Of a DNA stretch of 64,000 nt, positions 5,725-43,896 are shown one piece after another. Position numbers and translations under genes: made by a program. The DNA lies in the NCBI GenBank assembly GCA_034421335.1, contig DAOUKL010000073.1, positions 13,524-77,523 on the forward strand, written 5' to 3'. This stretch comes from Dehalococcoidia bacterium (GTDB lineage Bacteria; Chloroflexota; Dehalococcoidia; Lucifugimonadales; Australimonadaceae). How positions within the stretch are numbered: position 1 is the stretch's first letter; the number at the start of each line of letters is the position of its first letter. The notes under the pieces are model-generated. The model saw only the letters and a list, made by a program, of their open reading frames with translations. It searched no databases and was not told where the DNA came from.

Positions 5725-5760
5725 TAGAGTCCTCCCTGTCCGGTTGCCGGACTCCTGCTG

Positions 5761-6402: not shown

Positions 6403-6431
6403 GCCAGAGGAGGCGCCCGAATTCGTGTAGT

Positions 6432-7844: not shown

Positions 7845-9170
7845 TTACGCCCCAGCGTGATTGATGGGCTGGAAAGCGAGGCAGTGCTCTCTCGTCGCCT
7901 CCACCCAGTCCATGTCCTTGGGCAACACCGTGGCCGCGGAGCGGATGGCGAACAGCGTGGGGTCGTCGACGCTCCGCGGTAGTTCGCCTGTGTCGCGGAA
8001 CTCCTTGGCCGCGTTCAGCAAGCGGTAGCGCGTGTGAATGATGCCGGCGTCCGTCGAAACCAGGTGCTCCTTCGTCCGGTCGTAGATCGGCCCCATCGTC
8101 TCCTGCATTCCGGAGTCTTGCGCCCACGTGCCCGGGATCCCGCACCACCGCTCGGTCTGCTGCGCGCGGAAGTCGTTCCAGTAGTCGTTCGTGATGTTCT
8201 GACGGGGGCGCCACTGGCTGCCCGGAAGCGTGGGGTCCATCGGCATGAAGCCCACTTCGCCGATGTTGTAGACGCCGGGCCGCTTGTCCATGTCCAGCAG
8301 TTCGTCTTCCGTCAGCGGACGGTTCGGGTGGTAGGTGGCCCCGAAGACCATCGTGTGCTCGTCGTCGATGGGGATCCACGCGCGGAACCCGCGCTTCGGG
8401 TCTTCCCCGTAGGGCCCGGTCATCGTGTAGAAGGGCAGGAGGAACTGGCTCACGCGCCAGTAGTAGCTTGCGTCGTCGACGTTCCGGTGGCAGCCGACGA
8501 GCACCCCGTAGTCGGTGTCGCGCGCCTCGAATACCGGGCAGCGGTCGGTCTCCTTGTAGTACGGCCCCATCGACTTGGCGCTGGGCTGCGCCATCCTGAA
8601 CGGCAGGCTCGTGTGGAGGTACGAGTTGTGCGAGTTGTCGATGTCGCCCTCGAGCGCCTGCACGAAGTTGTTGATCTGCAGCCGCTTGGCGATGTGCCGG
8701 TGCTCCACCGGCACCATGTTCCATTCGAAGTCCGGCAGCGGAGGAGGCGTCTCCCGCGGCCCCATGTACGTCCAGATGACCCCGTTCCGCTCCTGGCACG
8801 GGTACGCCTTGATGCGGATCTTCTCCTTGAACGTCGCACCTTCCGGGGCGTTCGGCATGTCGATGCACGCGCCGGTCGTGTCGAACTTCCAGCCGTGGTA
8901 CACGCACCGCAGCCCGAACTCCTCGTTGCGGCCGAAGAACATCCCCGCGCCCCGGTGCGGGCAGCGGTCGTCCACCATCCCCACGCTCCCGCCGGTGTCC
9001 CGGTAGGCGACGAGATCCTCGCCGAGGAGACGAACGCGGAGTGGCTGGCCGTTGCGCTCCGGCAACTCCGACGACATCAGCGCCGGAATCCAGTAGTGAC
9101 GCAGCATGTCGCCGGTCGGAGTTCCGGCGCTCACCTTGCACATCAGTTCGTTGTCTTCTCTCGAAAGCAT
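7845..9170 (-). CDS. Rieske [2Fe-2S] non-heme iron oxygenase alpha subunit, phthalate-dioxygenase family (paralogue 1)
   Basis: Rieske motif CPHRGAGMFFG...CVYHGWKF. Iron site NNFVQALEGDIDNSHNSYLH. N-terminus DNELMCKVSAGTPTGDMLRHYWIPA. Confidence 0.9.
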   Translation of the reverse strand: MLSREDNELMCKVSAGTPTGDMLRHYWIPALMSSELPERNGQPLRVRLLGEDLVAYRDTGGSVGMVDDRCPHRGAGMFFGRNEEFGLRCVYHGWKFDTTGACIDMPNAPEGATFKEKIRIKAYPCQERNGVIWTYMGPRETPPPLPDFEWNMVPVEHRHIAKRLQINNFVQALEGDIDNSHNSYLHTSLPFRMAQPSAKSMGPYYKETDRCPVFEARDTDYGVLVGCHRNVDDASYYWRVSQFLLPFYTMTGPYGEDPKRGFRAWIPIDDEHTMVFGATYHPNRPLTEDELLDMDKRPGVYNIGEVGFMPMDPTLPGSQWRPRQNITNDYWNDFRAQQTERWCGIPGTWAQDSGMQETMGPIYDRTKEHLVSTDAGIIHTRYRLLNAAKEFRDTGELPRSVDDPTLFAIRSAATVLPKDMDWVEATREHCLAFQPINHAGA

Positions 9171-9262: not shown

Positions 9263-9517
9263 TCTCTCCCTCCAAGGGAACCTTGTCCCGAAGGGCAGGG
9301 AGGGCGCCCCAGCCCCCTCCTCCAAAGTCGGGGGTGGGGCTGGGGTGGGGCTTGCGCGCGCAAAGCGCGCCCCTCCGTCATTCCTGCGAAAGCAGGAATC
9401 TCGCCTCCTGCCTCCCCCCGAGGGGAGATGCCCGAAGGCAGAGAGGGCGCCTCCGTCATTCCCGCGGAGGCGGGAATCCATCCCCCTGGGTTCGTGGTGA
9501 GCCTGTCGAACCACGGG
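9263..9517. repeat. Mosaic cluster of GC-rich hairpin repeat modules (order B,C,A,B,A,D)
   Basis: Contains gtcattcctgcgaaagcaggaatc, ctccccccgaggggagatgcccgaaggcagagaggg, a ccccctcc...tcggggg...ttgcgcgcgcaaagcgcgc module, and ggttcgtggtgagcctgtcgaaccacgg. Confidence 0.9.
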
Positions 9518-10965: not shown

Positions 10966-12279
10966 CTACGCCGGGCAGTCCGGGTTCCCCGCCGTCACCT
11001 TCCGCCGCTCAACTGTGGAGTCGAACCACGACTCCTCGGAAGGAATGAGCACCGCGTCCGACCGGATGGCGTACGCCTCCGGGACCATCGCCTCATAGGG
11101 CGTTACGCCATTCTCGGCGAACGCCTTGGCTGCCCGGATCAGCCGCCGGCGCATCGAAATGATGCCCAGGTCCGACGTGCCGAGATGCTCCCTGGTGCGG
11201 TCGAATATCTTGCCCATGCTCAGTTGCGGAGCGGCATCCTGCGCCCAGAACTCGGCGATGCCCGAGAACGTCTCGTTCTTCTGCAATTCGCGGCTCTGGT
11301 TGAAGTCGTTCTCGATGGAGAGCGCCGGGCGCCACCGTCCGAACGGGGCGCTGCTGCGGGGAGCCCGGTTCTCTGGCGATATCGTCCACACCCCGGCCCT
11401 AGCCTGCATCGCCTCCCGCTGTTCGCCGGTGAAGGGGCGCGACGGGTGGAACGTCGCCCCGATGACGAACACGTTCTCGTCGTCGATGGGCACCCACGCG
11501 CGCCAGTTTCGCGTGGGGTCGTCCCCGTACGGGCCGGTCATCGTGTGGAACGGCATCAGGTGCTGGCTTATGCGCCAGTACCGCTGGCCGTCCGGCGCCT
11601 CACGGCCCGAGCCGATGCACACTCCGTAGTCGGTCTCCACCACCTGGAAACGCGGATGCGTGTCGTTCATGCGGATGGCGTCGACGCCCGCCCTCGGCGA
11701 GTTTGGGTCGAGATACAGCCGCGAGTGCACGAACGAAACGTGGCTCTGGTCGAGATCGCCCTCCATCCCCTGCACCCAGTTCGAGTACTGCACCCGCTTC
11801 GACGCCACGATGTGCGACTCCGGCAGGTCCAGCCACTCCAGCGCCGGCAGCGGAGGCGGCTCGCTCTTCGGCCCCATGTAAGTCCATATCACGCCCGCCC
11901 GCTCGACGACCGGGTACGACGGCTGCCGCACCTTGCCGTGGAAGTTGCTGTCGGGCGGCTCGCTGGGCATGTCCACGCAATGGCCCTCCACGTCGAACTT
12001 CCAGCCGTGGTAGATGCACCGCAGCCCGTCCTTCTCGTTTCGCCCGAAGTAGAGCGACGCCCCCCGGTGCGGGCATTGCTCGGCTATGAGCCCCGCCCTG
12101 CCCGACGAGTCCCGCACGGCCAGCAGGTCCTCCCCCAGCAGCCGCACTCGCTCCGGCGAGCCGTCCGCCTCGATCTCCCACGAGAAGAGGAACGGGATCC
12201 AGTACTGGCGGATCAACTCCCCCATGGGGGTTCCCGCCCCTACCCTCGTCATCAGTTCGTTGTCCGCAGTACTCAGCAT
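10966..12279 (-). CDS. Rieske non-heme iron oxygenase alpha subunit, phthalate-dioxygenase family (paralogue 2)
   Basis: CPHRGASLYFG...CIYHGWKF; SNWVQGMEGDLDQSHVSFVH. Start set at MLSTADNELMTRVGAGTPMGELIRQYWIP (ATG at 12279); the track ORF runs on to 12396. Confidence 0.9.
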   Translation of the reverse strand: MLSTADNELMTRVGAGTPMGELIRQYWIPFLFSWEIEADGSPERVRLLGEDLLAVRDSSGRAGLIAEQCPHRGASLYFGRNEKDGLRCIYHGWKFDVEGHCVDMPSEPPDSNFHGKVRQPSYPVVERAGVIWTYMGPKSEPPPLPALEWLDLPESHIVASKRVQYSNWVQGMEGDLDQSHVSFVHSRLYLDPNSPRAGVDAIRMNDTHPRFQVVETDYGVCIGSGREAPDGQRYWRISQHLMPFHTMTGPYGDDPTRNWRAWVPIDDENVFVIGATFHPSRPFTGEQREAMQARAGVWTISPENRAPRSSAPFGRWRPALSIENDFNQSRELQKNETFSGIAEFWAQDAAPQLSMGKIFDRTREHLGTSDLGIISMRRRLIRAAKAFAENGVTPYEAMVPEAYAIRSDAVLIPSEESWFDSTVERRKVTAGNPDCPA

Positions 12280-12445
12280 CGCATTCCCCCTTAGGCCAGC
12301 GTTGCCCTTGGCAGTCGGCAGTATAGGCCCGGCGTCCGTCCGGCGAAAGCGGGACTTCACGGCGCCCGGAGGGGGGCCGCAAGCGGGGGAGTTCATAGTA
12401 AAGTTTCACCTGTGCGGGCGACCGGCGCCCGCAAGGAGCACGAAT

Positions 12446-14182
12446 TTGGCGACGGCGACCCAGAACCCCCGCTACGAGGCGAACGAAAGCCCGTCTTGGC
12501 TCACTTCGCTGGGGTTCGGCCTGCAGTTCGCCATGATCGCGTCCGCCACGTTGCTCGTGACGCCGGTCGTCGTCGCTGAAGCGTCGGACCGTGGTGAGCC
12601 GTATGTCACGTGGATGGTGTTCGCCTCGCTGGTGGTCGTGGGGTTGTCCACGCTGCTACAGGTGCGACGCCTGGGGCCGCTGGGGGCGGGCGCGGCGCTC
12701 CCCATGGCCACCGCTCCGTTCGCGATTCCCTTCTGCATCACGGCGGTCGTCGACGGCGGTCCCGCGACGCTCTTAACGCTCTCTCTCGCCTCCGCGGTGT
12801 TCCAGTTGATCATCTCCAGGTGGCTCTTCATCCTCCGAAGGATCGTCACCCCTGTCGTCAGCGGCACGGTGATGATGATCCTGTCGGTTACGCTGGCGTC
12901 CGTCGTGTTCGCCCTGCTGGACGACACGGCTCGCGAGGAGCCGGTGGCCGCTCCCCTCACGGCGCTCGCGACGTTCGCAATCGTTATCGGGCTCATGCTG
13001 CGGGGAAGCGCCTTGTGGCGTTTGTGGGCGCCGGCCATCGGCATAGTCGTCGGATGTGTCGTCGCGGCGGCGTTCGGCATCTACGACCCCGCGAGGATCA
13101 CCGAGTCGACGTGGGCGGGCCTGCCGGCGGAGCGGCCGGCCCTCGGGCTGGATTTCAGCTCGGCGTTCTGGACCCTGCTGCCCGCGTTCCTGTTCATGGG
13201 CGTCATCATCTCCATCCAGGGGGACGGCGAGTCCATCGCGCACCAGCACGTCTCCCGCCGCGAGGCCCGGGCCATCGATTTCCGGGAGGTACAGGGCACG
13301 ATGGCGGGCGCGGGGATGAGCAACATGCTCGCGGGAGTCGCCGGGACCACGCCCAACGTCGTGAACCCCGGCATGGCGTCGTTCATACAGGTTACGGGCG
13401 TCGCGTCGCGTCGCGTGGGCTACTGCATCGGCGCCATCTTCCTCGTCGTCGCCTTCCTTCCCAAGCTCTCCGGCCTCTTCAGCAGCATACCCGGGCCGGT
13501 GATGGCGGGTTACCTCATCTTTATCGTGGGCACCCTGTTCGTCGACGGCGCCCGCACGGTTGTACAGTCGGAGCAGAACCGGCAGCGCCTCACCGCCGCG
13601 GGCGTCTCCTTCTGGTTGGGCGCGGCCTTCCACTTCGACCTCTTCACGCTGCCGAACCTCGGGTCGGTGTGGGGGCCGATGCTGGACAGCGCCATCACCA
13701 CGGGCGGTCTCGCCGTGGTCGTTCTGGTCCTCTTCCTCGAGGTCACCAAGCGGCGGCGGATGCGCTTCGAGTCCGAACTCGACGCCGACGCCCTCCCCGA
13801 CCTCTTCGCGTTCATCGAGCGCTTTGCCGAGAGCCGCCGCTGGAGCGACCCGATGAAGGAGCGCCTCAGCGCCGCCGCCGAGGAGACCCTGCTGACGCTC
13901 GCTCCGCTCGACCTAACCGGCGAGGCCGAGGAGCGCGAGCCGCGACGGCTCGTCGTGCTCGCCTCCAACGAGGGGCCCGTGGCGGAACTGGAATTCATCG
14001 GAGGCACGGACGAGCAAAACCTCGAAGACCGCATCCGGCAGCTCCAGCAGCACAGCGAGGAAATCACGTCGGAGGACGATATGTCGCTCCGCCTGCTGCG
14101 GCGCTACGCCTTGTCGGTGCGGCACCAGCAGTTCCACGGCTCCGACATCATCATGGTGCGCGTCGGCCCTCCCGCGGGGTAG
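12446..14182 (+). CDS. NCS2-family (xanthine/uracil-type) permease with a C-terminal cytoplasmic extension of about 130 aa, paralogue A
   Basis: TTG start at 12446, 6 nt after AAGGAG. TM core motifs IVTPVVSGTVMMILS and TTPNVVNPGMASFIQVTGVASRRVGY...IPGPVMAGY. The N-terminus QNPRYEANE parallels the paralogue's NENIRYEPDE. The upstream part of the track ORF is antisense to the Rieske gene. Confidence 0.75.
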   Translation: MATATQNPRYEANESPSWLTSLGFGLQFAMIASATLLVTPVVVAEASDRGEPYVTWMVFASLVVVGLSTLLQVRRLGPLGAGAALPMATAPFAIPFCITAVVDGGPATLLTLSLASAVFQLIISRWLFILRRIVTPVVSGTVMMILSVTLASVVFALLDDTAREEPVAAPLTALATFAIVIGLMLRGSALWRLWAPAIGIVVGCVVAAAFGIYDPARITESTWAGLPAERPALGLDFSSAFWTLLPAFLFMGVIISIQGDGESIAHQHVSRREARAIDFREVQGTMAGAGMSNMLAGVAGTTPNVVNPGMASFIQVTGVASRRVGYCIGAIFLVVAFLPKLSGLFSSIPGPVMAGYLIFIVGTLFVDGARTVVQSEQNRQRLTAAGVSFWLGAAFHFDLFTLPNLGSVWGPMLDSAITTGGLAVVVLVLFLEVTKRRRMRFESELDADALPDLFAFIERFAESRRWSDPMKERLSAAAEETLLTLAPLDLTGEAEEREPRRLVVLASNEGPVAELEFIGGTDEQNLEDRIRQLQQHSEEITSEDDMSLRLLRRYALSVRHQQFHGSDIIMVRVGPPAG

Positions 14183-14193
14183 CTTCCCCCACC

Positions 14194-14600
14194 TGTCTCC
14201 CCCCGAGGGGGAGATGCCCCGAAGGGGCCGAGAGGGCGCTCCGGCCCCCTCCCCCGAAGTCGGGGGAGGGCTGGGGTGAGGGTTTGCGCGCGTCAGCGCG
14301 CGCTCCGTCATTCCTGCGAAAGCAGGAATCTCGCCTCCATGTCTCCCCTCTTGCCTGTCATTCTGAGCGCAGCGAAGAATCTCGTCCGCTAGGCGCTCCG
14401 GCCCCCTCCCCCGAAGACGGGGGAGGGCTGGGGTGAGGGCGCTCCGTCATTCCTGCGGAAGCAGGAATCTCGCTCCCTGTCTCCCCCCGAGGGGAGGCGC
14501 CCGAAGGGGCAGAGAGGGCGCTCCGGCCCCCTCCCCCGAAGACGGGGGAGGGCTGGGGTGAGGGTTTGCGCGCGTCAGCGCGCACCCCGTCGTTCCCACG
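14194..14600. repeat. Large mosaic hairpin repeat cluster (about 10 modules: B,C,A,E,C,A,B,C and others)
   Basis: Three copies of ccggccccctcccccgaag[ta]cgggggagggctggggtgaggg, two of gtcattcctgcg[ag]aagcaggaatctcgc, and gtcattctgagcgcagcgaagaatctcg. Confidence 0.9.
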
Positions 14601-16600: not shown

Positions 16601-16611
16601 GGCGCCTTGAC

Positions 16612-16905
16612 CGTTCTCCCCCCGAGGGGGAGATAGCCCGAAGGGGCAGAGAGGGCGGATCCGGCCCCCTCCCCCGAAGACGGGGGAGGGCCGGGGTGAG
16701 GGCTTGCGCGCGTCAGCGCGCCTCCCGTCGCCCGCGGAAGCAGGAATCCCGCCTCCTGTCTCCCCCCGAGGGGGAGATGCCCCGAAGGGGCAGAGAGGGC
16801 GAATCCGGCCCCCTCCCCCGAAGTCGGGGGAGGGCTGGGGTGAGGGCTTGCGCGCGCCAGCGCGCCTCCGTCGCCCGCGAAGGCGGGAATCCATCCCCCT
16901 TGGTT
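16612..16905. repeat. Mosaic hairpin repeat cluster (B,C,A,B,C,A)
   Basis: A two-fold B-C-A module series: ctccccccgagggggagat[ag]gccccgaaggggcagagagggcg..ccggccccctcccccgaag..gcgcgcg[tc]cagcgcgc..gcccgcg[ga]aagc[ag]ggaatcc. Confidence 0.9.
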
Positions 16906-18639: not shown

Positions 18640-18878
18640 CCCCCATCTGTCATTCTGGGCGCAGCGAAGAATCTCGAGCGAAGCGCTCGGGGAGAGGGTC
18701 GAGAGTGCGCCCCCTCCCGTCGCCCGCGAAGGCGGGAATCCATCCGGCCCCTCCCCCCGTGGGGGAGGGCTGGGGTGGGGGCTTGCGCGCGAAGCGCGCA
18801 TCCGTTCTCCCCCCGAGGGGGAGATGCCCCGAAGGGGCAGAGAGGGCGGATTGCCCCCCAAAGGGGCAGCGTGGGCTC
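18640..18878. repeat. Mosaic hairpin repeat cluster (E,A,C,B)
   Basis: tgtcattctgggcgcagcgaagaatctcg, gcccgcgaaggcgggaatccatcc, gggggagggctggggtggggg cttgcgcgcgaagcgcgc, ctccccccgagggggagatgccccgaaggggcagagagggcg. Confidence 0.9.
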
Positions 18879-23164: not shown

Positions 23165-23350
23165 CTCCGGCGCCCGCGAAGGCGGGAACCCACTCTCCCC
23201 CTCTGGGGGAGATGCCCGAAGGGCGGAGAGGGCGCACACACCCTCCCCCGAAGACGGGGGAGGGCTGGGGAGAGGGTTTGCGCGCCGAAGCGCGCACCCC
23301 GTCGTTCCTGCGAAAGCAGGAACCCCGCAGCCACTCCCCCTCGGGGGCGC
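23165..23350. repeat. Mosaic hairpin repeat cluster (A,B,C,A)
   Basis: gcccgcgaaggcgggaaccc, ctccccctctgggggagatgcccgaagggcggagagggcg, ccctcccccgaagacgggggagggctggggagagggtttgcgcgccgaagcgcgc, gtcgttcctgcgaaagcaggaacc. Confidence 0.9.
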
Positions 23351-23458: not shown

Positions 23459-23932
23459 ATGACAGTGCCTGTGGAACTGACCATCAACGGGCGTTCCTAT
23501 AGCGCCGAGGTCGAGCCGCGCCAGCTGCTCGTCCACTTCATCCGCGAAGACGCGGGCCTTACCGGCACGAAGGTCGGTTGCGACACCAGCCAGTGCGGGA
23601 CCTGCACCGTCCAGCTCGACGGCGTATCCGCCAAGGCGTGCACCGTGCTCACCGCGCAGGCCTCCGGCTCCTCCATAACCACCATCGAGGGCTTGTCGGA
23701 CGGCGTCGACCTGCACCGGCTCCAGGAGGCGTTCTGGAACAATCACGGCCTGCAGTGCGGGTTCTGCACCCCCGGCATGATTATGGCGGCCGATGACCTC
23801 CTCCGCAGGAACCCGTCGCCCTCCCGCGAGGAGATACGCCACGGACTCGAAGGCAACATCTGCCGCTGCACCGGTTACCAGAACATTGTCAGCGCCATCG
23901 AAGACGCCGCCGGCGCGGGAGGAGGACGGTAA
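23459..23932 (+). CDS. coxS: Molybdenum hydroxylase small subunit, [2Fe-2S]-binding (CoxS-like)
   Basis: [12 protein letters not shown] and QCGFCTPGM...CRCTGY cluster motifs; 157 aa. Confidence 0.9.
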
Positions 23933-23935
23933 GCC

Positions 23936-26290
23936 ATGACCACCAGAGCGTTCAGGTCCGGCATCCGCCGGCGCGAAGACCCAAGGCTCATCACCGGGCG
24001 CGCGTCGTACACCGACGACATCAAGCTCCCCGGCATGCTCCACGCGGCCATCCTCCGGAGCCCCTACGCCCACGCCAACATCACGTCCATCGACGTCGCA
24101 GCGGCCCAGGCGCAGCCCGGCGTCGTCGCCGTCTTCACCGGCGCCGACACGGAGGGCGCCCTCAGCGGCCTGCCCTGCGCGTGGCTCATACCCGGCTCCG
24201 ACCTCAAGACCCCCGCCCACCCCGCCATCGCCACGGACAGGGTCCGCTACGTCGGCGACGCCGTCGCCGTTGTCGTGGCCGGGAGTCGCTACCAGGCCGA
24301 GGACGCGCTCGAACACGTCAACGTCGACTACGAGCCACTCGGCGTCGTCCTCAATCCAAAGGACGCCGCGCAGGACGGCGCCCCGCAGCTCCACGACGAC
24401 GTCCCCAACAACGTCGCGTTCACCTGGGCCGTCGCCGGCGGGGATACCGACGAGGCGTTCGCCCAGGCCGACGTGACCGTGAGCGACACCATCACGCTCC
24501 AACGGCTGATCGCCAACCCGATGGAGCCGCGCTCCGCCATCGCGCAGTGGTCGGCCCCCATGGGCGAGTTGACCCTGTGGAGCACAACGCAGAACCCCCA
24601 CATCGCACGGTTCCTCACATCCGTGGTAACCGGCGTGGCGGAGCACAAGATCCGCGTCATCGCCCCGGAGGTCGGCGGAGGGTTCGGCAGCAAGATCCCC
24701 TACTACGCCGACGAGGCCATCGCCGCCTTCTGCTCCATGCGCCTCGGCGTCCCCGTCAAGTGGACCGAGACCCGCAGCGAGAACTACCTCGCCACCACCC
24801 AGGGCCGCGACCACGTCGAAGAGGTCGAGATGGCCGCCACAAGCGACGGCAGAATCACCGGCCTCCGCGCCACCGTCTACGCCGGACTCGGCGCCTACCT
24901 CTCCACCGCCAGCCCCGGCGTTCCGACCATTCTGCACGGCCTCATGTACTCCGGCCCGTACGATATTCCCAACATCAGCGGAACCGTCTACGGCGTGTTC
25001 AACAACGGCACCCCCGTCGACGCCTACCGCGGCGCCGGAAGGCCCGAGGCCACCACGCTCATCGAGCGCCTCGTCGACCTCGTCGCCGCCGCGATCGGCG
25101 CCGACCCCGCGGAGGTGCGCCGCAAGAACTTCATCCCCAAGTTCGACAACGGCCACGACGTCGCCACCGGCATCACCTACGACAGCGGCGACTACGAAAC
25201 AACGCTCGACGCGTGCCTCGCCGCCGCCAACTACGGCGAACTCCGCGCCGAGCAGGGCCGCGCGCGCTCCGAGGGCCGCTGCGTCGGCGTCGGCGTCTCC
25301 GCCTACGTCGAAATATGCGGCCTCGGCCCCTCGCAGGTCGCCGGCGCCGTCGGCTTCCAGGGAGGCCTGTGGGAGAGCGCCATCGTGCGCTTCCACCCCA
25401 CCGGCAAGGTCAACGTCATGATCGGCTCCTCTCCCCACGGACAGGGCGAGGAGACGACGTTCGCCCAGATCATCGCCCACGAGGTCGGCGTCGACGTCGA
25501 CGACGTCGAGGTCATCCACGGGGACACCGACCTCACCCCTATGGGTTGGGGCACCTACGGCAGCCGCACCACCGCCGTCTCCGGCGCCGCCGTCGCCGTA
25601 GCCGCCCGCAGGATTAAAGAGAAGTCCCGCGCCCTCGCCGCTCATCTCCTCGAGGCCGCGACGGAGGACATCGACTACGAGGACGGACGGTTCTTCGTGA
25701 AAGGCTCGCCCGACCAGCACAAGACCATCCAGGACATCGCGCTCATGGCGAACGTGGCCTGGAACATGCCCGAGGGAATGGAGCCCGGCCTCGAGGCCAG
25801 CGCCTTCTACGACCCGCCCAACTTCACCTTCCCCTTTGGGACTCACGTCGCGGTTGTCGAGGTCGATCCCGACACGGGCCAGATCGACTTGCAGCAGTAC
25901 TACGCGGTCGACGACTGCGGCGTGCAGATCAACCCCATGATCGTCGAGGGACAGGTGCATGGCGGCATCGTCCAGGGCGTCGGTCCCGCCCTCTGGGAGG
26001 GCGTCGTCTACGACGACCAGGGCCAGCCGCTCACAGGCACGATGCAGGACTACGCCCTCCCCCGCGCCGACGCGCTCCCGGAGTTCAACGTCCAGTCGAA
26101 CGAGACGCCGTCGCCCCACCACCCCCTCGGCGTCAAGGGCATCGGCGAGGCGGGGACCATCGCATCGACCTGCACGGTCTACAACGCAGTGATGGACGCG
26201 CTCAGGCCCCTCGGCGTAAATCGGGTCGATATGCCCCTCACGCCCGAGAAGGTGTGGCGCGCCATCAACGACGCACGGAACGGAGGCTAG
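23936..26290 (+). CDS. coxL: Molybdopterin-binding large subunit of a xanthine-dehydrogenase-family hydroxylase (form II CoxL-like)
   Basis: 784 aa. The active-site loop VDAYRGAGRPEAT is the form II AYRGAGR type, not the form I AYxCSFR type. GGGFGSK is also present. Confidence 0.9.
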   Translation: MTTRAFRSGIRRREDPRLITGRASYTDDIKLPGMLHAAILRSPYAHANITSIDVAAAQAQPGVVAVFTGADTEGALSGLPCAWLIPGSDLKTPAHPAIATDRVRYVGDAVAVVVAGSRYQAEDALEHVNVDYEPLGVVLNPKDAAQDGAPQLHDDVPNNVAFTWAVAGGDTDEAFAQADVTVSDTITLQRLIANPMEPRSAIAQWSAPMGELTLWSTTQNPHIARFLTSVVTGVAEHKIRVIAPEVGGGFGSKIPYYADEAIAAFCSMRLGVPVKWTETRSENYLATTQGRDHVEEVEMAATSDGRITGLRATVYAGLGAYLSTASPGVPTILHGLMYSGPYDIPNISGTVYGVFNNGTPVDAYRGAGRPEATTLIERLVDLVAAAIGADPAEVRRKNFIPKFDNGHDVATGITYDSGDYETTLDACLAAANYGELRAEQGRARSEGRCVGVGVSAYVEICGLGPSQVAGAVGFQGGLWESAIVRFHPTGKVNVMIGSSPHGQGEETTFAQIIAHEVGVDVDDVEVIHGDTDLTPMGWGTYGSRTTAVSGAAVAVAARRIKEKSRALAAHLLEAATEDIDYEDGRFFVKGSPDQHKTIQDIALMANVAWNMPEGMEPGLEASAFYDPPNFTFPFGTHVAVVEVDPDTGQIDLQQYYAVDDCGVQINPMIVEGQVHGGIVQGVGPALWEGVVYDDQGQPLTGTMQDYALPRADALPEFNVQSNETPSPHHPLGVKGIGEAGTIASTCTVYNAVMDALRPLGVNRVDMPLTPEKVWRAINDARNGG

Positions 26291-26293
26291 GCC

Positions 26294-27160
26294 ATGTACG
26301 CAGCACAGACGACCTACCACCGCGCAGGCTCCGTGGCCGAGGCGGTGCAACTCCTCGCAGCCAACGAGGGCGCCAAGCCCCTGGCCGGCGGCCACAGCCT
26401 CATTCCGCTCATGAAACTCCGCCTCGCGGCCCCCGCCGCCCTCGTCGACATCGGCCGCATCGCCGAACTGAAGGGCATCGCCGCGACGGACGGCGGCCTG
26501 ACCATCGGCGCGCTCACGACCCACGCGGAGATCGCCGCGTCCGACCTCGTGAAGCAACACGCGCCCTTGCTCGCGGAGGCCGCAGCCCTCGTCGGCGACC
26601 CCGCCGTCCGCAATCGGGGCACTATCGGCGGCAACGTCTCCCACGGCGACCCAGCGTCCGACCTGCCGGCCGTCCTCCGCGCCCTCGGCGCCTCCTTCAA
26701 CGCGACAGGCCCGGGCGGCGAGCACAGCATTCCCGCGGCCTACTTCGCGATAGGCCTGCTGGAGAACTCGCTGGCCGATAACGAAATCCTCACCAGCGTT
26801 TCCGTGCCCGCGACCCCGGCGGGCGCGGGCTCGGCCTACGTCAAGTTCTCCCACCCGGCGTCGCGTTACGCCGTCGTCGGCGCAGCCGTCGTCCTGCAGG
26901 TGAGCGGCGGAACGTGCTCGTCCGCGAGCGTCGTGGTCGGAGGCGTCGAGGCCATCCCGACCAGGGCGGCGTCCGTCGAGGCCGCCCTCGCGGGCTCCGA
27001 CCTCTCCGAAGCTGCCCTCGACGCGGCGGCTCAGGCCGTCGCCGGCGACTTCAACGGCGATGCCGTAGGCGACGTCTTCGCCTCCGAGGACTACCGCAAG
27101 GCCATGGCCGCCGTCTATCTCCGCCGCGCCCTCGCAACCGCCCGCTCCCGCGCAGGCTAG
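26294..27160 (+). CDS. coxM: Molybdenum hydroxylase medium subunit, FAD-binding (CoxM-like)
   Basis: LAGGHSLIPLMKLR and GTIGGNVSHGDPASD FAD-binding motifs; 288 aa. Confidence 0.9.
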   Translation: MYAAQTTYHRAGSVAEAVQLLAANEGAKPLAGGHSLIPLMKLRLAAPAALVDIGRIAELKGIAATDGGLTIGALTTHAEIAASDLVKQHAPLLAEAAALVGDPAVRNRGTIGGNVSHGDPASDLPAVLRALGASFNATGPGGEHSIPAAYFAIGLLENSLADNEILTSVSVPATPAGAGSAYVKFSHPASRYAVVGAAVVLQVSGGTCSSASVVVGGVEAIPTRAASVEAALAGSDLSEAALDAAAQAVAGDFNGDAVGDVFASEDYRKAMAAVYLRRALATARSRAG

Positions 27161-27221
27161 GCTGAGCGAGTACGGACGAACAAGCGCGGGGGCAGGCTGC
27201 GGCCTCGCCCCCGCGCTCAGC
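27161..27221 (+). other. Strong GC hairpin between coxM and the inserted gene
   Basis: gcgcgggggc (27184-27193) pairs with gcccccgcgc (27207-27216). The outer arms gctga/tcagc extend the stem. There is no T-tract. Confidence 0.4.
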
Positions 27222-27232
27222 GAGAGAGCGCG

Positions 27233-28177
27233 ATGGGGGCCAAGGAAGAGGTGCAGGAAGCGCAGAAGGCGTGGGCGGAGTGGTGCGAGAAGCCGCTCCT
27301 GCCATCCCACGAGTACTACCTTGAAAGTGTAGGCGCCAACCTGCGCGACCGCCTCTCCCCCCGTGCGTGCGCAGGCTACCAAGCAGGAGATGGCAAGGAG
27401 TTTGAGTGGAGTGGTAATACTCCCCCCAATATGTGGGCGCTTCACTCCTCCTCGGCTCTAGTGGCTAATTTCTTCGACTACTGGACGGACAATGGGAACA
27501 GGGCTCCCCTATTGAGCGCATTGAGAGTCGACGCTATCGCCGACGACCTTTTGGAATTCGAGAAGAAGTTCCCTGGACTCAGAGGTAAGCCGCCGAACCT
27601 TGATGTGGCAATCACCTTGACCTCTGACTGCGTTATCGCGATAGAGAGCAAGTTCACCGAGTGGATGTCCAGTAGCCCCGACGGTAAGTCGAATTTTAGG
27701 CGTAGGAACGTGAAACACTGGGACGATTCTTCCTACTTCCCTAGGTTGGTCGAACATTGGAAAGGAGTGGGCTTACCGAACTGCCAGCAACTTGCCAGAG
27801 AGTTGAACAGCATCCAGAAGGAGAGGTTCCTCAACCCGAAATCGACAGCCGAGTATCCCTTCAGCCACCTAGACCCCGTCCAACTCCTCAAACACGCTCT
27901 CGGTTTGGCGAAGCGGCGGGCCAACGTGAGGTTCAGCCCCTACTACGACAACTTCAGTCTCTACTACCTCTATTACGACTGGCCTGGAAAGGAATCTGCA
28001 GCGCACAAGGACGAAATCAAGAGCTTCTGCGCCTGCGTTGGCGAAGAACTGAACTTCAAGGCCCTCACCTACCAGGAGGTTTACGAGCGGCTTAGGCTGT
28101 CTGAGGCGATCGAACCGGAATACCTCACCTACCTCGGCAACCGCTACTTCTGCGGAAAGGGCGCGCCCCGTGACTAA
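27233..28177 (+). CDS. Hypothetical protein with a PD-(D/E)XK-like motif, inserted in the cox operon; lower G+C than its neighbours
   Basis: 314 aa with no family I can name. D124-x13-E138-S-K140 (NLDVAITLTSDCVIAIESKFTEW) fits the restriction-endonuclease-fold signature. Codon usage is visibly more A/T-rich than in flanking genes. Its stop overlaps the GTG start of coxD. Confidence 0.6.
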   Translation: MGAKEEVQEAQKAWAEWCEKPLLPSHEYYLESVGANLRDRLSPRACAGYQAGDGKEFEWSGNTPPNMWALHSSSALVANFFDYWTDNGNRAPLLSALRVDAIADDLLEFEKKFPGLRGKPPNLDVAITLTSDCVIAIESKFTEWMSSSPDGKSNFRRRNVKHWDDSSYFPRLVEHWKGVGLPNCQQLARELNSIQKERFLNPKSTAEYPFSHLDPVQLLKHALGLAKRRANVRFSPYYDNFSLYYLYYDWPGKESAAHKDEIKSFCACVGEELNFKALTYQEVYERLRLSEAIEPEYLTYLGNRYFCGKGAPRD

Positions 28178-29099
28178 CTCTGCCACCCGTCCCGCATCCG
28201 TCGACGAACTGCAAACCGCGCTGCGCGGCGAGCTGTACGTCGCCGACCGCGGGCTCGCCATGTCCGCCTACCTTGCCCTCTCCCTCCAGCGCCCGCTCTT
28301 CCTCGAAGGCGAGGCCGGCGTCGGCAAGACCGAGGTCGCCAAGGCCCTCGCGTCAACCCTCGGCGCGCGCCTCATCCGCCTCCAGTGCTACGAGGGGCTG
28401 GACGTCAGCCAGGCCGTCTACGAGTGGAACTACTCCCGCCAGCTCCTCCACATCCGCCTGCTCGAGGCGGCCGGCGGCGTCGACCGCGAGCAGGCCGAGC
28501 AGGAGCTGTTCAGCGAGCAGTTCCTCATCAAGCGCCCCCTGCTGCAGGCGCTCGACGGCGAAGGCCCCACCGTCCTCCTCATCGACGAACTCGACCGCGC
28601 CGACGAGGAGTTCGAGGGCTACCTGCTCGAGATGCTCTCCGATTACCAGATCACCGTGCCCGAAATCGGGACCTACGAGGCCGCCGCCCCGCCGGTCGTC
28701 GTCATCACGTCGAACCGCACGCGCGAGGTGCACGACGCCCTCAAGCGCCGCTGCCTCTACTACTGGATCGACTACCCCGACCTCGACAAAGAACTCCAGA
28801 TCGTCCGCAGCAAGCTCCCCGACGCCCCCCAGAGCCTCACCGCCCAAGTCGTCGGGTTCGTCCAGGAGTTGCGCGGCGCCGAGCTCTACAAGCTCCCCGG
28901 AGTCGCCGAAACCCTCGACTGGACAGCCGCGCTCGTGAGCCTCAATGAAACCCGGCTCACCCCCGAAACCATCGACGAGACGCTCGGCATCCTCCTCAAG
29001 TACCGCGAGGACGTGCAGGCCGTCCGAGGCGAGCAGACCCGCGCGCTCCTCAACCGCGCCATGAACCGCGGCACGCAGCGCGGCGGCCGCCGTGGCTAG
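28170..29099 (+). CDS. coxD: MoxR-family AAA+ ATPase (CoxD-like)
   Basis: Walker A GEAGVGKTEVAKAL and Walker B VLLIDELDRAD; ...TSNRTREVHDALKRRC. GTG start. Confidence 0.9.
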   Translation: MTNSATRPASVDELQTALRGELYVADRGLAMSAYLALSLQRPLFLEGEAGVGKTEVAKALASTLGARLIRLQCYEGLDVSQAVYEWNYSRQLLHIRLLEAAGGVDREQAEQELFSEQFLIKRPLLQALDGEGPTVLLIDELDRADEEFEGYLLEMLSDYQITVPEIGTYEAAAPPVVVITSNRTREVHDALKRRCLYYWIDYPDLDKELQIVRSKLPDAPQSLTAQVVGFVQELRGAELYKLPGVAETLDWTAALVSLNETRLTPETIDETLGILLKYREDVQAVRGEQTRALLNRAMNRGTQRGGRRG

Positions 29100-30483
29100 C
29101 CAGTCCGGCCACATCCTCCACAACCTCCTCCTCTTCGGACGCCTCCTCCGAATGCTCGGACTCGACGTCCACCCCGGAAGAATGCTCGACGCCGTCCGCG
29201 TGCTCGACGATATCGGCCTCGCGCGCAAGGCCGACGTGCGCGCCGCTCTCCGCACTCTGCTCGTCCACCGGAGGGACGACCTCCCCGTGTTCGATGAGGC
29301 GTTCGACGTGTTCTGGCGTCAGCGCAAGGACAGCACGTCGACTCTCGACCTGCGCTCGATGGGCGAGCGCCGGCGCTACCGCAGCGTCGAGGCCGCCGCC
29401 CCTCCACCCGGCTCCGGCGAGGCGGTCGACGACGAGTCCGGCGCGGAGGATGCCGGCGACCAGGTCGTGCTCACGCGGACGTTCAGCGCCCGCGAGGTGC
29501 TCCGCACGCGCGACTTCGCGGAGTTCACGCCGGAGGAGACGGCGCAGGCGCGGCTCCTGCTCGCCGAACTCGCGTGGCGGCCCGGCCTTCGCCGCACCCG
29601 CCGCAAGCAGCCCGGCAGAGGCCCGGCGCTCGATCTCCGCAGAACGCTGCGGGCGAACGCCCGACTCGGCGGCGAGCCCGCCCGCCTCCTCCGGCTCCGG
29701 CGCAAGGAGAAGCCGCGCAGGCTGGTGGTCGTCTGCGACGTGAGCGGTTCGATGGAGCGTTACACTCGCATGCTCCTGCACTTCATCCACAGCCTCTACG
29801 GCGGACTCGACCGCCACGTCGAGGCCTTCCTGTTCGCCACCCGTCTCACCCGCGTCACCCGCCATCTCGCCCAACGCGACATTGACCGCGCCGTCGGCGA
29901 GGTCGCCAAGGCCGTGCCCGACTGGTCCGGCGGCACGCGCATCGGCCAGGCGCTCAAGGAGTTCAACTTCCGGTGGGCGCGCCGCACCCTCGGATGGGGC
30001 TCCGTCGTCCTCATCGTCTCCGACGGCTGGGACCGGGGCGACCCGGAACTGCTCGCCCGCGAGATGGAGCGCCTGCGGCGCAGCTGCAGCCGCCTCATCT
30101 GGCTCAATCCCCTCGCCGGCGCCGAGGCGTACGAGCCGTTGACGCAGGGGATGCGCGCCGCGTCCCCCTATGTTGACGACCTCCTGCCCGTGCACAACCT
30201 CGCCGCGCTCATCGACCTCGCCGAGCTCCTCAACACCCTCCCCACGCGCCACGCCCATACCACCCTCCCCACAAGAGGGGGGAGGGTCGAGCGCGAAGCG
30301 CGAGGGGAGAGGTCCGAGGGCCGCGCATCCGTCGTTCCTGCGAAAGCAGGAACCTCGCCCCCCTCTCCTACTCCGGAGGACAAGCCCGAGGGACAAACAG
30401 GACAACGCTCGTGGCACGCCGGCGCCAATCCCACCTTCCGCCACCCTCTCTGGGGCCGCGGCGACGACCGGCGGCGGGAATAG
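29092..30483 (+). CDS. coxE: VWA-domain protein (CoxE-like) with a repeat-encoded C-terminal tail
   Basis: MIDAS motif VVVCDVSGSM. N-terminus LLLFGRLLRMLGLDV is typical of CoxE. The last ~80 codons (from about 30240) read through hairpin repeat modules. Confidence 0.85.
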   Translation: MASQSGHILHNLLLFGRLLRMLGLDVHPGRMLDAVRVLDDIGLARKADVRAALRTLLVHRRDDLPVFDEAFDVFWRQRKDSTSTLDLRSMGERRRYRSVEAAAPPPGSGEAVDDESGAEDAGDQVVLTRTFSAREVLRTRDFAEFTPEETAQARLLLAELAWRPGLRRTRRKQPGRGPALDLRRTLRANARLGGEPARLLRLRRKEKPRRLVVVCDVSGSMERYTRMLLHFIHSLYGGLDRHVEAFLFATRLTRVTRHLAQRDIDRAVGEVAKAVPDWSGGTRIGQALKEFNFRWARRTLGWGSVVLIVSDGWDRGDPELLAREMERLRRSCSRLIWLNPLAGAEAYEPLTQGMRAASPYVDDLLPVHNLAALIDLAELLNTLPTRHAHTTLPTRGGRVEREARGERSEGRASVVPAKAGTSPPSPTPEDKPEGQTGQRSWHAGANPTFRHPLWGRGDDRRRE

Positions 30484-30636
30484 GGCGCATCCGGCCCCCT
30501 CCCCCGAAGACGGGGGAGGGCTGGGGTGAGGGCTTACGCGCGAAGCGTGCATCCGTCGTTCCTGCGAAAGCAGGAACCTCGCCCCCTCCCTGTCTCCCCC
30601 CTTGGGGGAGATGCCCGAAGGGCAGCGAGGGACGAA
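30240..30636. repeat. Mosaic hairpin repeat cluster (F,A,...,C,A,B), partly inside the coxE 3' end
   Basis: ccaccctccccacaagaggggggagggtcgagcgcgaagcgcgaggggagaggtccg, gtcgttcctgcgaaagcaggaacctcgcc (twice), ccggccccctcccccgaagacgggggagggctggggtgaggg, ctccccccttgggggagatgcccgaagggcag. Confidence 0.9.
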
Positions 30637-34774: not shown

Positions 34775-34960
34775 TCCGTCGCCTGCGAAAGCAGGAATCT
34801 CGCCCCTGTTCCCCCTCCCCTGAAGTCGGGGGAGGGCTGGGGTGAGGGTTTGCGCGCGAAAGCGCGCACTCCGTTCTCCCCCTGAGGGGGAGATGCCCCG
34901 AAGGGGCAGAGAGGGCGTCCGGCCCCCTCCCCCGAAGTCGGGGAGGGCCGGAGGGCGCCC
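34775..34960. repeat. Mosaic hairpin repeat cluster (A,C,B,C)
   Basis: gtcgcctgcgaaagcaggaatctcgcc, ccccctcccctgaagtcgggggagggctggggtgagggtttgcgcgcgaaagcgcgc, ctccccctgagggggagatgccccgaaggggcagagagggcg. Confidence 0.9.
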
Positions 34961-38607: not shown

Positions 38608-38682
38608 AGCCGACCTCCTCCAGCCAGTCCGGTTGGCCATAGTCTACACGAATAGCGCAACCGCCAACCATGAAGAGCGCCC

Positions 38683-38962
38683 TTCCGTCATTCCCGCGAA
38701 GGCGGGAATCCATCCCCTTTCTCCCCCTGAGGGGGAGATGCCCGAAGGGCAGAGAGGGCATCCGGTTCCCTCCCCCGAAGTCGGGGGAGGGCTGGGGTGA
38801 GGGTTTACGCGCGAAGCGCGTCTCCGTCTCCCCCTGAGGGGGAGATGCCCGAAGGGCAGAGAGGGCATCCGGCCCCCTCCCCCGAAGTCGGGGGAGGGCT
38901 GGGGTGAGGGTTTGCGCCCGCTAGGGCGCGCTCCGTTCTCCCCCCTCGGGGCAGCGCGCGCA
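38683..38962. repeat. Mosaic hairpin repeat cluster (A,B,C,B,C,B-like)
   Basis: gtcattcccgcgaaggcgggaatccatcc, then two tandem B-C units (ctccccctgagggggagatgcccgaagggcagagagggcatccgg..cctcccccgaagtcgggggagggctggggtgaggg). Confidence 0.9.
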
Positions 38963-42002: not shown

Positions 42003-42115
42003 CCCTCCCCCCGAGGGGAAGATGCCCCGAAGGGGCAGAGAGGGCGGATTGGCCCCCTCCCCCGAAGTCGGGGGAGGGCTGGGGTGAGGGTTGCGCGCGT
42101 CAGCACGCTCTCCGG
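42003..42115. repeat. Hairpin repeat cluster (B,C)
   Basis: cccctccccccgaggggaagatgccccgaaggggcagagagggcg, ggccccctcccccgaagtcgggggagggctggggtgagggttgcgcgcgtcagc. Confidence 0.9.
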
Positions 42116-42372: not shown

Positions 42373-43896
42373 ATCGAACTCGAACGCTACCGCAACGACC
42401 CCCTCGGCTTCGTCCGCGATGTCCTCCACGAAGCAGGCGCCCCCTACCCCAAGCAGGAGGAGATGCTCATGGCCCTCGCCGCCGACAAGCGCAGAGTCTC
42501 CGTCGTCGGTTGCAACTCCTCCGGCAAGGACTGGGCCGCCGCACGCGCCATCATCTGGTGGATCGAGACACGACCCCAGGCCAAGGTCATCGTCTCCGGC
42601 CCCACCCTCCGGCAGGTGAAGGAGATCGTCTGGGACGAGCTCCGAGCAGCCCACGCAGCCTGCGGTCACCGCCTCGCCGGCGTCGTCCGCGCGGGCGAGT
42701 ACCGCGCTGGACCCGACCGCGTCGCGCTCTGCCTCACCTCCAACAACCAGCACAACCTGCAGGGCTTCCACTCCCCCGAGTTGCTCGTCGTCATCACCGA
42801 GGCGCAGGGCGTCAAGCAGGCGTACTTCGAGGCCCTCAAGCGCCTCAACCCCAAGAAGATGCTGCTGCTCGGCAACCCCCTCGCGCTCACCGGCGAGTTC
42901 TACGACTCCCATCACGGCAAGAGTCCGCTCTATGAGCGCGTCGAAATCTCCGCCTACGATTCCCCCAACGTTCAGCAGGGGCGCCTCGACGCCCTTCCCG
43001 GCCTCGTCACTCCCGAGGACGTCGACGAACGCCGCCGCGAGTGGGGCGAGGACTCCCCCCTCTACATCGCGTCCATCCTCGGACAGTTTCCGCCATCCCT
43101 CGAAGACTCCCTCACCTCCCGCGTCCACGTCGACGCCGCCGTCCAGCACTGGCTGCGCGAAACCCCGCCCGAAGCGGCGGGGGGCCTCCGTCATTCCCGC
43201 GCATCCTCCCGTCATTCCCGCGAAAGCGGGAATCTCGCAGCCTTCGCGGACGGGGGCGAGGTTCCTGCTTCCGCAGGAACGACGGAACCCGGCCGCACGT
43301 CTCCCGTCATTCCCGCGCAGGCGGGAATCCACTCTCCCCCGCTGGGGGAGATGCCCGAAGGGCAGAGAGGGCCCTGGCGCATGGGCGTCGACGTCGCGCG
43401 CTACGGCGCCGACAAGTCGATTATCTGCCTGCGACGCGGCCACCGAGTCGAACGGCTCATCGCCTTCGAGAAGATGGACACCATGCGGCTCGCCGGCGAG
43501 GTCCGCGACATCGCCGAGGCCCTCGGTGTCCCGGCGGTGTTCGTCGACGAGACCGGCGTCGGCGGTGGGGTGGTCGACCGCCTGAAGGACTTGTGCGTCC
43601 CCGTCATCGGCGTCGAGGCAGGCGGCAGGGCCTACCGCCCCTCCCAGTTCGCCGACCTGCACGCCGAGACGTACTGGGAGGTCGCGCGGCGTCTGCGCGA
43701 GGGCGACATCTCCCTCCCGCCCGACGACGAGCTCGCGGGGCAGCTGCTCGCGCAGCGCTACGAGGTCTCCACCACGGGGCGCATCCACCTCGACAGCAAG
43801 GCCAAACTGCGGAGGAAGGGCGTCGCTTCCCCCGACCGCGCCGACGCCCTCGCCCTCGCCTTCATGGAGCCCCCCTCCATGCAGATATGGTTCTAG
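42373..43896 (+). CDS. Phage terminase large subunit-like protein (ATPase + RNase H-like nuclease), orphan, with a repeat-derived insertion
   Basis: Walker A VVGCNSSGKD and Walker B-like LLVVITEAQG. Nuclease half MGVDVARYGADKS...VFVDETGVGGGVVD...SPDRADALALAF. The track ORF starts at ATG 42463, but the conserved N-terminus (IELERYRNDPLGFVRDVL..PKQEEML) continues upstream in frame to an ATC at 42373, 6 nt after AAGGAGG. Confidence 0.7.
   Translation: MELERYRNDPLGFVRDVLHEAGAPYPKQEEMLMALAADKRRVSVVGCNSSGKDWAAARAIIWWIETRPQAKVIVSGPTLRQVKEIVWDELRAAHAACGHRLAGVVRAGEYRAGPDRVALCLTSNNQHNLQGFHSPELLVVITEAQGVKQAYFEALKRLNPKKMLLLGNPLALTGEFYDSHHGKSPLYERVEISAYDSPNVQQGRLDALPGLVTPEDVDERRREWGEDSPLYIASILGQFPPSLEDSLTSRVHVDAAVQHWLRETPPEAAGGLRHSRASSRHSRESGNLAAFADGGEVPASAGTTEPGRTSPVIPAQAGIHSPPLGEMPEGQRGPWRMGVDVARYGADKSIICLRRGHRVERLIAFEKMDTMRLAGEVRDIAEALGVPAVFVDETGVGGGVVDRLKDLCVPVIGVEAGGRAYRPSQFADLHAETYWEVARRLREGDISLPPDDELAGQLLAQRYEVSTTGRIHLDSKAKLRRKGVASPDRADALALAFMEPPSMQIWF
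43160..43375. repeat. Hairpin repeat modules (A,A,inverted A,A,B) lying inside the terminase-like ORF
   Basis: ccgtcattcccgcgc, ccgtcattcccgcgaaagcgggaatctcgc, ggttcctgcttccgcaggaacgacgg, ccgtcattcccgcgcaggcgggaatccac, tctcccccgctgggggagatgcccgaagggcagagagggcc. Confidence 0.9.

Follow-up and report, generated by a model that had tools for sequence, protein, structure and literature searches.

A horizontally exchanged, predicted PD-(D/E)XK nuclease gene at the coxM-coxD junction of a Dehalococcoidia molybdenum hydroxylase operon

The window analysed here, a 64,000-nucleotide (nt) stretch of a Dehalococcoidia genome assembly (contig DAOUKL010000073.1), contains on its forward strand an operon for a CoxL-type molybdenum hydroxylase in which a 314-amino-acid (aa) open reading frame (ORF) separates coxM from coxD. 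The question raised by this locus is whether the ORF is a working part of the operon or a guest in it. An initial annotation, made from the sequence alone, noted a PD-(D/E)XK-like motif and an A/T-rich codon usage, and left the choice between a selfish or defence-type insertion and a recruited maturation factor. The comparisons described below strongly favour the view that the ORF, designated here the REase gene after its Pfam family REase-ARP, is a horizontally exchanged accessory nuclease, carried as a passenger at the coxM-coxD junction, and not a Cox factor. The ORF is present as first described, on the plus strand, although the span originally reported for it, 27161-28177, begins directly after coxM and includes a noncoding spacer ahead of the start codon (Table 1).

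Occupied, empty and exchanged alleles of the coxM-coxD slot

The base composition sets the REase gene apart from its neighbours, as had been judged by eye from its codons. Its G+C content is 0.562, and 0.727 at third codon positions (GC3), as against 0.658-0.724 and 0.854-0.923, respectively, for coxS, L, M, D and E; the whole window has a G+C content of 0.684. When G+C is computed in successive windows, it drops to 0.525-0.53 at 27400-27999, compared with 0.65-0.74 on either side.

Comparison with related cox clusters, which are referred to here by locus numbers, reveals that the gene does not share the history of the DNA around it. The window and locus L004 are about 88-90% identical at the nucleotide level over about 8 kb, including genes upstream of the cox cluster, and coxM is about 90-97% identical up to its stop codon; inside the ORF, identity falls to 40-65%, and it recovers within about 100 nt on each side. 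At the protein level, the Cox proteins are 92-95% identical (95% for the CoxS-like protein and 94% for CoxD) and the nucleases about 55%, therefore without co-evolution of the two. Synonymous divergence (dS) between the same two loci is 1.78 in the REase gene compared with 0.33-0.40 in coxS, coxM and coxD, and nonsynonymous divergence (dN) is 0.39 compared with 0.02-0.045 in the cox genes. All pairs of distinct alleles are 52-58% identical, whether the accompanying cox genes are 57% or 95% alike, and the tree of REase alleles is star-like and discordant with the cox tree.

A further comparison, with the sister strain represented by L177, shows the gene in a different state, as the two strains carry the same allele and their CoxD proteins are 99% identical. 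The dS of this allele pair is 0.16, equal to that of the flanks (0.10-0.21), and dN/dS is 0.22; REase dN/dS is about 0.2, indicative of purifying selection. Hypermutation or rapid evolution of the ORF in place was considered as a source of its divergence and rejected, given that the L177 allele is no more diverged at synonymous sites than the flanking genes. Within this pair the ORF is itself a mosaic. Its core, at 27374-27973, has 5 differences in 600 nt, fewer than the flanks (about 1% versus about 5% divergence), and the tract that follows, encoding aa 248-307, has 44 differences in 180 nt, or 24% divergence; 15 of the 16 aa differences between the two proteins fall within residues 256-302. 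Because the alleles do not track the host, either in dS relative to L004 or in the 180-nt tract, we conclude that the gene has been exchanged horizontally at a fixed slot. A history independent of the host locus, as is expected of a homing gene, is thus apparent from dS, from the discordant trees and from an ORF core that is younger than its flanks in the comparison with L177.

Homologues occupy exactly the same position in seven other clusters (L003, L004, L005, L006, L010, L036 and L177), all from one Dehalococcoidia clade. Their G+C content is always low (0.52-0.56 compared with 0.61-0.74), and in the family tree they form a single clade with shared slot-specific features, a signature found in only 8-9 of the best 120 family matches. 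The slot therefore harbours its own REase sub-lineage, confined to one Dehalococcoidia cox clade. CoxD proteins at least 83% identical to that of the window number in the thousands, and junctions devoid of the gene occur among close relatives: L171 (CoxD 90% identical) and L173-L176 (CoxD 84%) are empty, and in a tree of CoxM and CoxD the branches with an empty site fall between branches with an occupied one. One site thus exists in filled and empty form in close relatives, another expectation for a homing gene. The spacer of L171 was inspected as a possible clear remnant of the REase gene and rejected as such, since its hairpin alone matches.

Another REase-less junction is that of L170, a contig of 3x coverage with a CoxD 97% identical to that of the window and the same wider synteny. 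Window positions 26001-27223 align with L170 positions 4735-5957 (95.8% identity) and 28127-29500 with 5958-7331 (95.5%), so that L170 lacks exactly 903 bp. It retains roughly the last 50 nucleotides of the ORF, 95% identical to the window allele and including the ribosome-binding site of coxD, and has an intact coxD-coxE pair. The exact loss with preservation of the 3' end of the ORF identifies L170 as a deletion derivative in which the stub predicted to be needed for coxD translation was spared.

Beyond this clade, none of 80 cox clusters recovered in a JGI metagenome scan has the REase gene; with CoxD identities of only 58-71% these clusters serve as outgroups and not as close relatives. 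Both coxM and coxD were detected in about 46 of them, and in most of these coxM is followed directly by coxD-coxE. Neither the co-occurrence nor the co-evolution with Cox proteins expected of a Cox factor was found. The insertion proposed in the initial annotation would have been contradicted by homologues lying routinely in cox clusters at native G+C; the recurrence is instead sporadic, limited to one clade and always of low G+C. Together with the 903-bp deletion, the allele replacement and the location of most of the family outside cox clusters, this makes the case for horizontal insertion stronger than could have been known from the window. Whole-allele replacement, partial gene conversion and deletion are all documented at the coxM-coxD slot, and one small set of metagenome-assembled relatives holds the occupied, deleted, empty, replaced and mosaic states, the last with its 180-nt conversion tract. 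The locus is a clear example of a single nuclease ORF living within a conserved metabolic operon.

The encoded protein and its family

The assignment of the protein to the restriction-endonuclease fold, originally proposed on the basis of short motifs, was examined by profile, alignment and structure prediction, and it held. The Pfam profile PF22558 (REase-ARP) matches residues 58-306 with 51.3 bits, compared with a gathering cut-off of 27, and it matches all 33 aligned relatives; PDDEXK_13 matches 25 of the 33 weakly, over the catalytic core. Residues D124, E138 and K140 of the D124-x13-E138-x-K140 motif are invariant in the 33-sequence alignment, as are E110, E143, Q217 and H221, and the H71-SSS motif is present and invariant or nearly so. 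An AlphaFold2 model built from the 33-relative alignment (pLDDT 91.2, pTM 0.90) has, in order, a helix at 73-85, strands at 106-112, 122-128 (with D124) and 134-140 (with E138 and K140), helices, and a strand at 241-247. Judged by this order of secondary structure elements rather than by coordinates, the model contains the alpha-beta-beta-beta-alpha-beta core of PD-(D/E)XK nucleases, with D124 on the second strand and E138 and K140 on the third. Foldseek returned no significant solved or viral structural neighbour, and its weak top matches are PD-(D/E)XK nucleases: SduA, Can2, Card1, NucS and SfsA. On the strength of the Pfam match, the invariant catalytic residues and the confidently predicted core, we accept the ORF as encoding a protein of the PD-(D/E)XK nuclease fold, predicted to be catalytically intact and presumably a Mg2+-dependent DNA endonuclease.

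Searches of PDB (with the single sequence and with a profile), NCBIfam and PHROGs gave nothing for the REase ORF. A search of 5.8 billion proteins produced 1,258 relatives, the closest of which, beyond the protein's own cluster, is 51% identical. Although the score exceeds the gathering threshold and the D...ExK motif is invariant, the window protein and its Dehalococcoidia relatives form a divergent branch of PF22558, with E-values of 1e-13 to 1e-23 and a match restricted to profile positions 56-270. The family name stands for "Restriction Endonuclease associating with ARP", yet in about 90 loci there is no conserved candidate for an "ARP" partner gene. Literature searches by family name or accession retrieved no paper describing REase-ARP or PF22558, and a search on homing endonucleases in operons retrieved nothing specific; as far as we found, the protein belongs to a curated Pfam family that is apparently unpublished and uncharacterised, with a well-known fold.

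The cox operon is an uncommon home for this family, with cox neighbours at only about 7 of 86 family loci. Most copies are found in metagenome-assembled genomes of Dehalococcoidia, closely behind unrelated genes whose orientation they share: 13 nt downstream of fusA, about 100 nt downstream of eno, between nuoL and nuoM (5 genomes), and after hydantoinase, amidohydrolase and OGG genes. Several genomes have two copies. The Dehalococcoidia copies have a G+C content of about 0.50-0.58 regardless of that of the host (0.55-0.70). Clustering of all neighbouring ORFs of the roughly 90 loci yielded no conserved partner gene; the only recurrent neighbours reflect lineage-specific synteny, namely VOC-family and rlmL genes in Gammaproteobacteria.

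Two of these settings deserve a description of their own. In L018, L020, L023, L025 and L030 (about 7964-8830 in each), the REase-ARP gene is tightly spaced, in the same orientation, between nuoL and a nuoM-like paralogue. In metagenome-assembled genomes of Gammaproteobacteria (L061, L063, L069, L074, L078-L081 and L086; REase at about 8001-8822), the gene has the native G+C content of 0.68-0.75 and lies next to a c12 gene, with, in some genomes, an unannotated gene of about 600 aa on its other side and then rlmL. From a reading of their sequences, made without a Pfam scan, we take the c12 gene to be VOC/glyoxalase-like and rlmL to encode an rRNA methyltransferase.

The host operon and the features of the junction

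Table 1. Positions within the window of the nuclease gene, its internal features and the adjoining cox genes
Feature	Position	Strand	Remarks
coxS-like gene, [2Fe-2S] small subunit	23459..23932	+	host operon gene, outside the insert; Pfam Fer2_2 and Fer2
form-II CoxL-like gene, molybdopterin large subunit	23936..26290	+	host gene; Pfam MoCoBD_1, MoCoBD_2 and Ald_Xan_dh_C
coxM-like gene, FAD subunit	26294..27160	+	host gene, upstream flank of the slot; Pfam FAD_binding_5 and CO_deh_flav_C
coxM-REase spacer, noncoding	27161..27232	+	72 nt; part of the span first reported
GC-rich intercistronic hairpin of the host spacer	27184..27216	+	conserved
segment missing in L170 (extent of natural deletion)	27224..28126	+	903 bp; from junction alignment
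REase-ARP gene, solitary predicted PD-(D/E)XK nuclease, horizontally exchanged insert	27233..28177	+	314 aa, low G+C; Pfam PF22558, E = 1.6e-13
catalytic-motif codons D124 ... E138-S-K140	27602..27652	+	invariant; predicted strands 122-128 and 134-140
recombinant tract	27974..28153	+	aa 248-307; diverged from L177
REase 3' tail, putative translational-coupling junction	28154..28177	+	overlaps coxD start; Shine-Dalgarno-like element
coxD-like gene, MoxR-type AAA+ ATPase	28170..29099	+	host gene, downstream flank of the slot; Pfam AAA_5 and AAA
coxE-like gene, VWA protein	29092..30483	+	host gene; Pfam VWA_CoxE, E = 1.3e-68

The initial annotation spoke of an interrupted canonical cox order. Cox genes do flank the ORF on both sides, although their arrangement is coxS-L-M and not the coxM-S-L order of form I. 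The large subunit has a readable AYRGAGR loop in place of the form-I AYXCSFR loop and scores 765.7 against the NCBIfam carbon monoxide (CO) dehydrogenase model TIGR02416, below its cut-off of 991.15. On these three grounds the cluster is not placed with the form-I aerobic CO dehydrogenases, and we class it as one for a CoxL-type molybdenum hydroxylase of form II rather than for an established CO dehydrogenase. A divergently oriented coxG precedes coxS, and genes for a xanthine/uracil permease and a CoA-transferase are located upstream of the cluster. Among the accessory proteins, CoxD matches the NCBIfam "MadB family AAA-type ATPase" at 288 bits (cut-off 475) and CoxE the "MadC family VWA" at 85 bits (cut-off 600), both below threshold.

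At its 3' end the REase gene is interlocked with coxD. As first noted, its stop codon (TAA, 28175-28177) lies beyond the GTG start of coxD at 28170, an overlap of 8 nt; the REase stop overlaps the coxD start in nearly all occupied clusters. A Shine-Dalgarno-like element, GGAAAGGG, is found at 28154-28161 within the last REase codons, and the tail RYFxGKGAP, the codons of which comprise the ribosome-binding site of coxD, is conserved in the cox-slot alleles only. The REase gene itself shows no recognisable promoter. Since it stands just after the host hairpin, we propose that read-through from coxSLM would supply its transcript; and since its last codons hold the ribosome-binding site of coxD and run into the coxD start, translation of CoxD is probably coupled to that of the nuclease. 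Under such an arrangement, coxD expression would be kept only by deletions that spare the 3' stub of the REase gene, and clean loss of the gene would be costly.

The hairpin downstream of coxM is real, as the initial annotation had it, but it does not bound the insert. An 83-nt spacer segment that includes an outer stem folds at -41.7 kcal/mol (z = -2.15), no U-tract follows the hairpin, and no terminator-like site was found there. Nine clusters of the clade keep it, among them L171, which has no REase gene, and the deletion derivative L170, and it is absent upstream of the non-cox REase copies; its presence at L171 and its absence from the non-cox copies mark it as a feature of the host spacer, and for the same reasons it was rejected as a part of the mobile unit. 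Its conservation is mostly a matter of sequence identity, with compensatory change in 2 of 15 pairs only, and Rfam has no match for either the spacer or the REase ORF. The likely role of this stem-loop after coxM is to stabilise the mRNA or to serve as an attenuator. In more distant cox clusters, unrelated hairpins occur at the same place downstream of coxM. Intercistronic stem-loops have been described in operons subject to selective RNA processing and stabilisation (PMC8219983), and the present case is similar in that a strong, conserved stem-loop without a U-tract follows the last structural gene, coxM, ahead of the accessory genes, with unrelated hairpins at this place in other cox clusters; it differs in being known from sequence, with the few compensatory changes just mentioned.

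Several other structured elements were encountered in and around these clusters. GC-rich, REP-like hairpin repeat modules of about 40-110 nt, often in tandem, are present at no fewer than 15 intergenic sites of the window, among them 9287-9485, 14192-14590, 16611-16901, 18712-18847, 23173-23302, 30476-30631, 34811-34951, 38680-38950, 42005-42114, 43205-43372 and 53289-53447; the sites include the coxG-coxS spacer and a position just after coxE. An 82-nt REP-like copy lies between coxD and coxE in L004. On the metagenome contig L091 (4668-5001), about 330 nt of coxM-coxD spacer form a near-perfect palindrome, predicted to fold at -206 kcal/mol.

Cargo of other selfish or defence types occupies the coxM-coxD spacer in further lineages (L097:3961-5001, L111:462-1528, L140:2260-5001, L108:1517-2040 and L109:1176-1999): a DUF4145 protein, a PIN toxin preceded by small ORFs, a Vsr, Dcm and split Eco29kI restriction-modification system, a HicB-like gene, and a membrane ORF. 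Three of these inserts are of low G+C (L097, 0.39 versus 0.52; L111, 0.33 versus 0.42; L109, 0.39 versus 0.51), and in L108 and L140 the G+C of the spacer is lower than that of the locus by only about 0.05-0.07. The most divergent of the occupied cox clusters, L005, is ringed by mobile or defence-type genes (1-2005 and 11336-13550), including aGPT-Pplase3/ADDT, an M78 peptidase with an HTH gene, YopA and a DUF433/DUF5615 pair. Toxin-antitoxin, restriction-modification and HEPN-like genes thus seem to have landed repeatedly in the coxM-coxD spacer, which may bear on how selfish or defence genes find permissive sites.

The probable passenger and its place among known systems

Of the two possibilities put forward at the outset, the selfish or defence-type insertion is favoured by presence, replacement and deletion of the gene independently of its flanks, and an accessory nuclease exchanged horizontally at the junction accounts well for these data. 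Several observations weigh against this conclusion. Phage, plasmid and IMG/VR collections contain almost no copies of the REase gene, and PADLOC-DB 2.0 returned no defence family for the ORF at E-values up to 0.1; for these two reasons the gene fits neither the classical defence-island gene nor the phage-borne homing gene. In the nuoL-nuoM slot the nuclease co-diverges with its flanks (74-86% versus 79-85% nucleotide identity), as it does, at native G+C, in Gammaproteobacteria. The family is consequently not uniformly mobile, and in some lineages REase-ARP has the behaviour of an ordinary resident gene that serves the cell. The trees, moreover, were obtained by neighbour joining, with long branches and without support values, and nuclease activity, substrate and co-transcription alike are deduced from the DNA.

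If the gene is a passenger, two modes of life appear about equally likely: it may restrict foreign, for example modified, DNA, or it may cleave empty junctions and home into them. The intact state of the copies, purifying selection and prolonged vertical descent speak for a benefit to the host; the monophyly of the slot-specific lineage, the ORF core that is younger than its flanks, homology confined to the ORF and multiple copies per genome favour homing.

As a plausible though tentative explanation, the gene may encode a solitary defence nuclease, a restriction enzyme that is type IV-like (modification-dependent) or spares self DNA in some other way. Diversifying or frequency-dependent selection would maintain it, phage pressure would keep its alleles diverse, and homologous recombination in the conserved cox sequences on either side would exchange them. 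Consistent with this, no methyltransferase is conserved as a neighbour in any of the contexts examined, the neighbours in the window being coxM and coxD, and the adjacent cognate DNA methyltransferase that defines a type II restriction-modification system is lacking. Purifying selection in all lineages, the deep, star-like and mosaic alleles held at a fixed slot between conserved genes, and the restriction-modification, toxin-antitoxin and DUF4145 genes hosted by the same junction elsewhere all point in this direction; some copies of the family adjoin GmrSD-like or HSDR_N-like genes, and the defence nucleases SduA, Can2 and Card1 are among the weak structural matches. On the other hand, no PADLOC model matches, most copies are outside recognisable defence islands, two paralogous copies are present per genome in several cases, and a gene without its own promoter, embedded in metabolic operons, would be unusual for a defence function.

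It is also possible that the REase gene is a homing-type selfish gene, the product of which would cleave the REase-less coxM-coxD junction, or conserved cox sequence next to it, so that the gene is copied in during recombinational repair and the slot-specific lineage spreads between hosts. The cox-slot alleles form one clade, yet are discordant with the host tree and far older than their flanks; the same site is occupied and empty among close relatives; the ORF core is less diverged than the flanks in the pair formed by the window and L177; only very short divergent tracts mark the borders; and several genomes have two copies. Between copies at other sites, homology can be limited to the ORF, extending from -8 to the stop codon in L011 and L013 and from -18 onwards in L035 and L056; L011 and L012 share 1.3 kb inside otherwise unrelated DNA, and the homology of L019 and L029 runs from -125 to +10. 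That the insertions closely follow conserved genes and share their orientation is likewise compatible with homing. However, the closely related copies L011, L013, L016 and L021 are found at different sites, which is not site-specific behaviour, and no target site could be defined. Almost every copy is intact, the catalytic residues being invariant and dN/dS low, when the classical cycle of invasion and decay predicts many degenerate ones, and the gene has persisted vertically for long periods in the nuo slot and in Gammaproteobacteria. A broader form of this explanation, which we regard as rather doubtful, is that the Dehalococcoidia REase-ARP genes constitute a class, not recognised before, of free-standing nuclease genes of homing type that reside on the chromosome. 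As members of such a class they would colonise intercistronic junctions in conserved operons, namely coxM-coxD, nuoL-nuoM and those after fusA and eno, borrow host transcription, pass between species by gene conversion in slot-specific lineages, and be hard to delete because the next gene's ribosome-binding site, and the overlap with its start, lie within them.

An ordinary housekeeping nuclease of DNA repair or recombination, with a low G+C content stemming from amino acid composition only, is improbable. The stable gammaproteobacterial copies, with native G+C and conserved synteny, would suit such a role, as would strong purifying selection and the absence of a partner gene; however, it is GC3 that is depressed, not total G+C alone, and the sporadic distribution, the presence and absence among close relatives, the allele replacement and the multiple, dispersed copies are not what it predicts.

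Least probable is a recruited Cox maturation or regulatory factor, or the effector of a REase-MoxR-VWA module working with CoxD and CoxE: the gene has the same position and predicted coupling to coxD in all seven other occupied clusters, is under purifying selection and precedes a MoxR-VWA pair (such pairs occur in conflict systems too), but coxM is joined directly to coxD-coxE in close relatives and in most of the distant clusters, L170 has lost the gene and kept coxD-coxE intact, the nuclease is only about 55% identical where CoxD is 94% identical, and at about 90% of family loci neither a MoxR nor a VWA gene adjoins the nuclease gene. A single REase-CoxD-CoxE module was rejected in view of those family loci and of the distant cox clusters that have no REase gene.

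For annotators, the locus is a caution that the REase gene is not to be read as a Cox factor. Because the junction DNAs are defined, the PF22558 family is also open to experiment.

Nuclease genes that move, and variable slots flanked by conserved genes, are already known kinds of element, and the horizontally exchanged nuclease described here can be set beside two of them. Among solitary or type IV PD-(D/E)XK restriction nucleases, such as the Mrr-like enzymes, it resembles its counterparts in standing alone without a methyltransferase, in its diverse alleles and horizontal exchange, and in sharing its slot with toxin-antitoxin and restriction-modification cargo of other lineages; SduA of Shedu is the top Foldseek match, weak and not significant. 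It differs from these nucleases in having no PADLOC match and in its location within a metabolic operon, with probable coupling to the next gene, rather than in a defence island. Free-standing homing endonuclease genes, such as the seg and mob genes of phage T4, are likewise inserted between conserved genes, and PD-(D/E)XK homing enzymes, for example I-Ssp6803I, exist. With the free-standing genes the REase gene shares the single nuclease ORF between conserved genes, occupied and empty sites, a host-discordant phylogeny, short conversion tracts and a lower G+C content. Unlike them, it is chromosomal in uncultured Dehalococcoidia and not carried by a phage or intron, nearly all its copies are intact, some related copies are at unrelated sites, and it has no defined target site. 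An unusual trait is the operon-embedded lifestyle of the gene, which carries within its own last codons the ribosome-binding site of the gene that follows.

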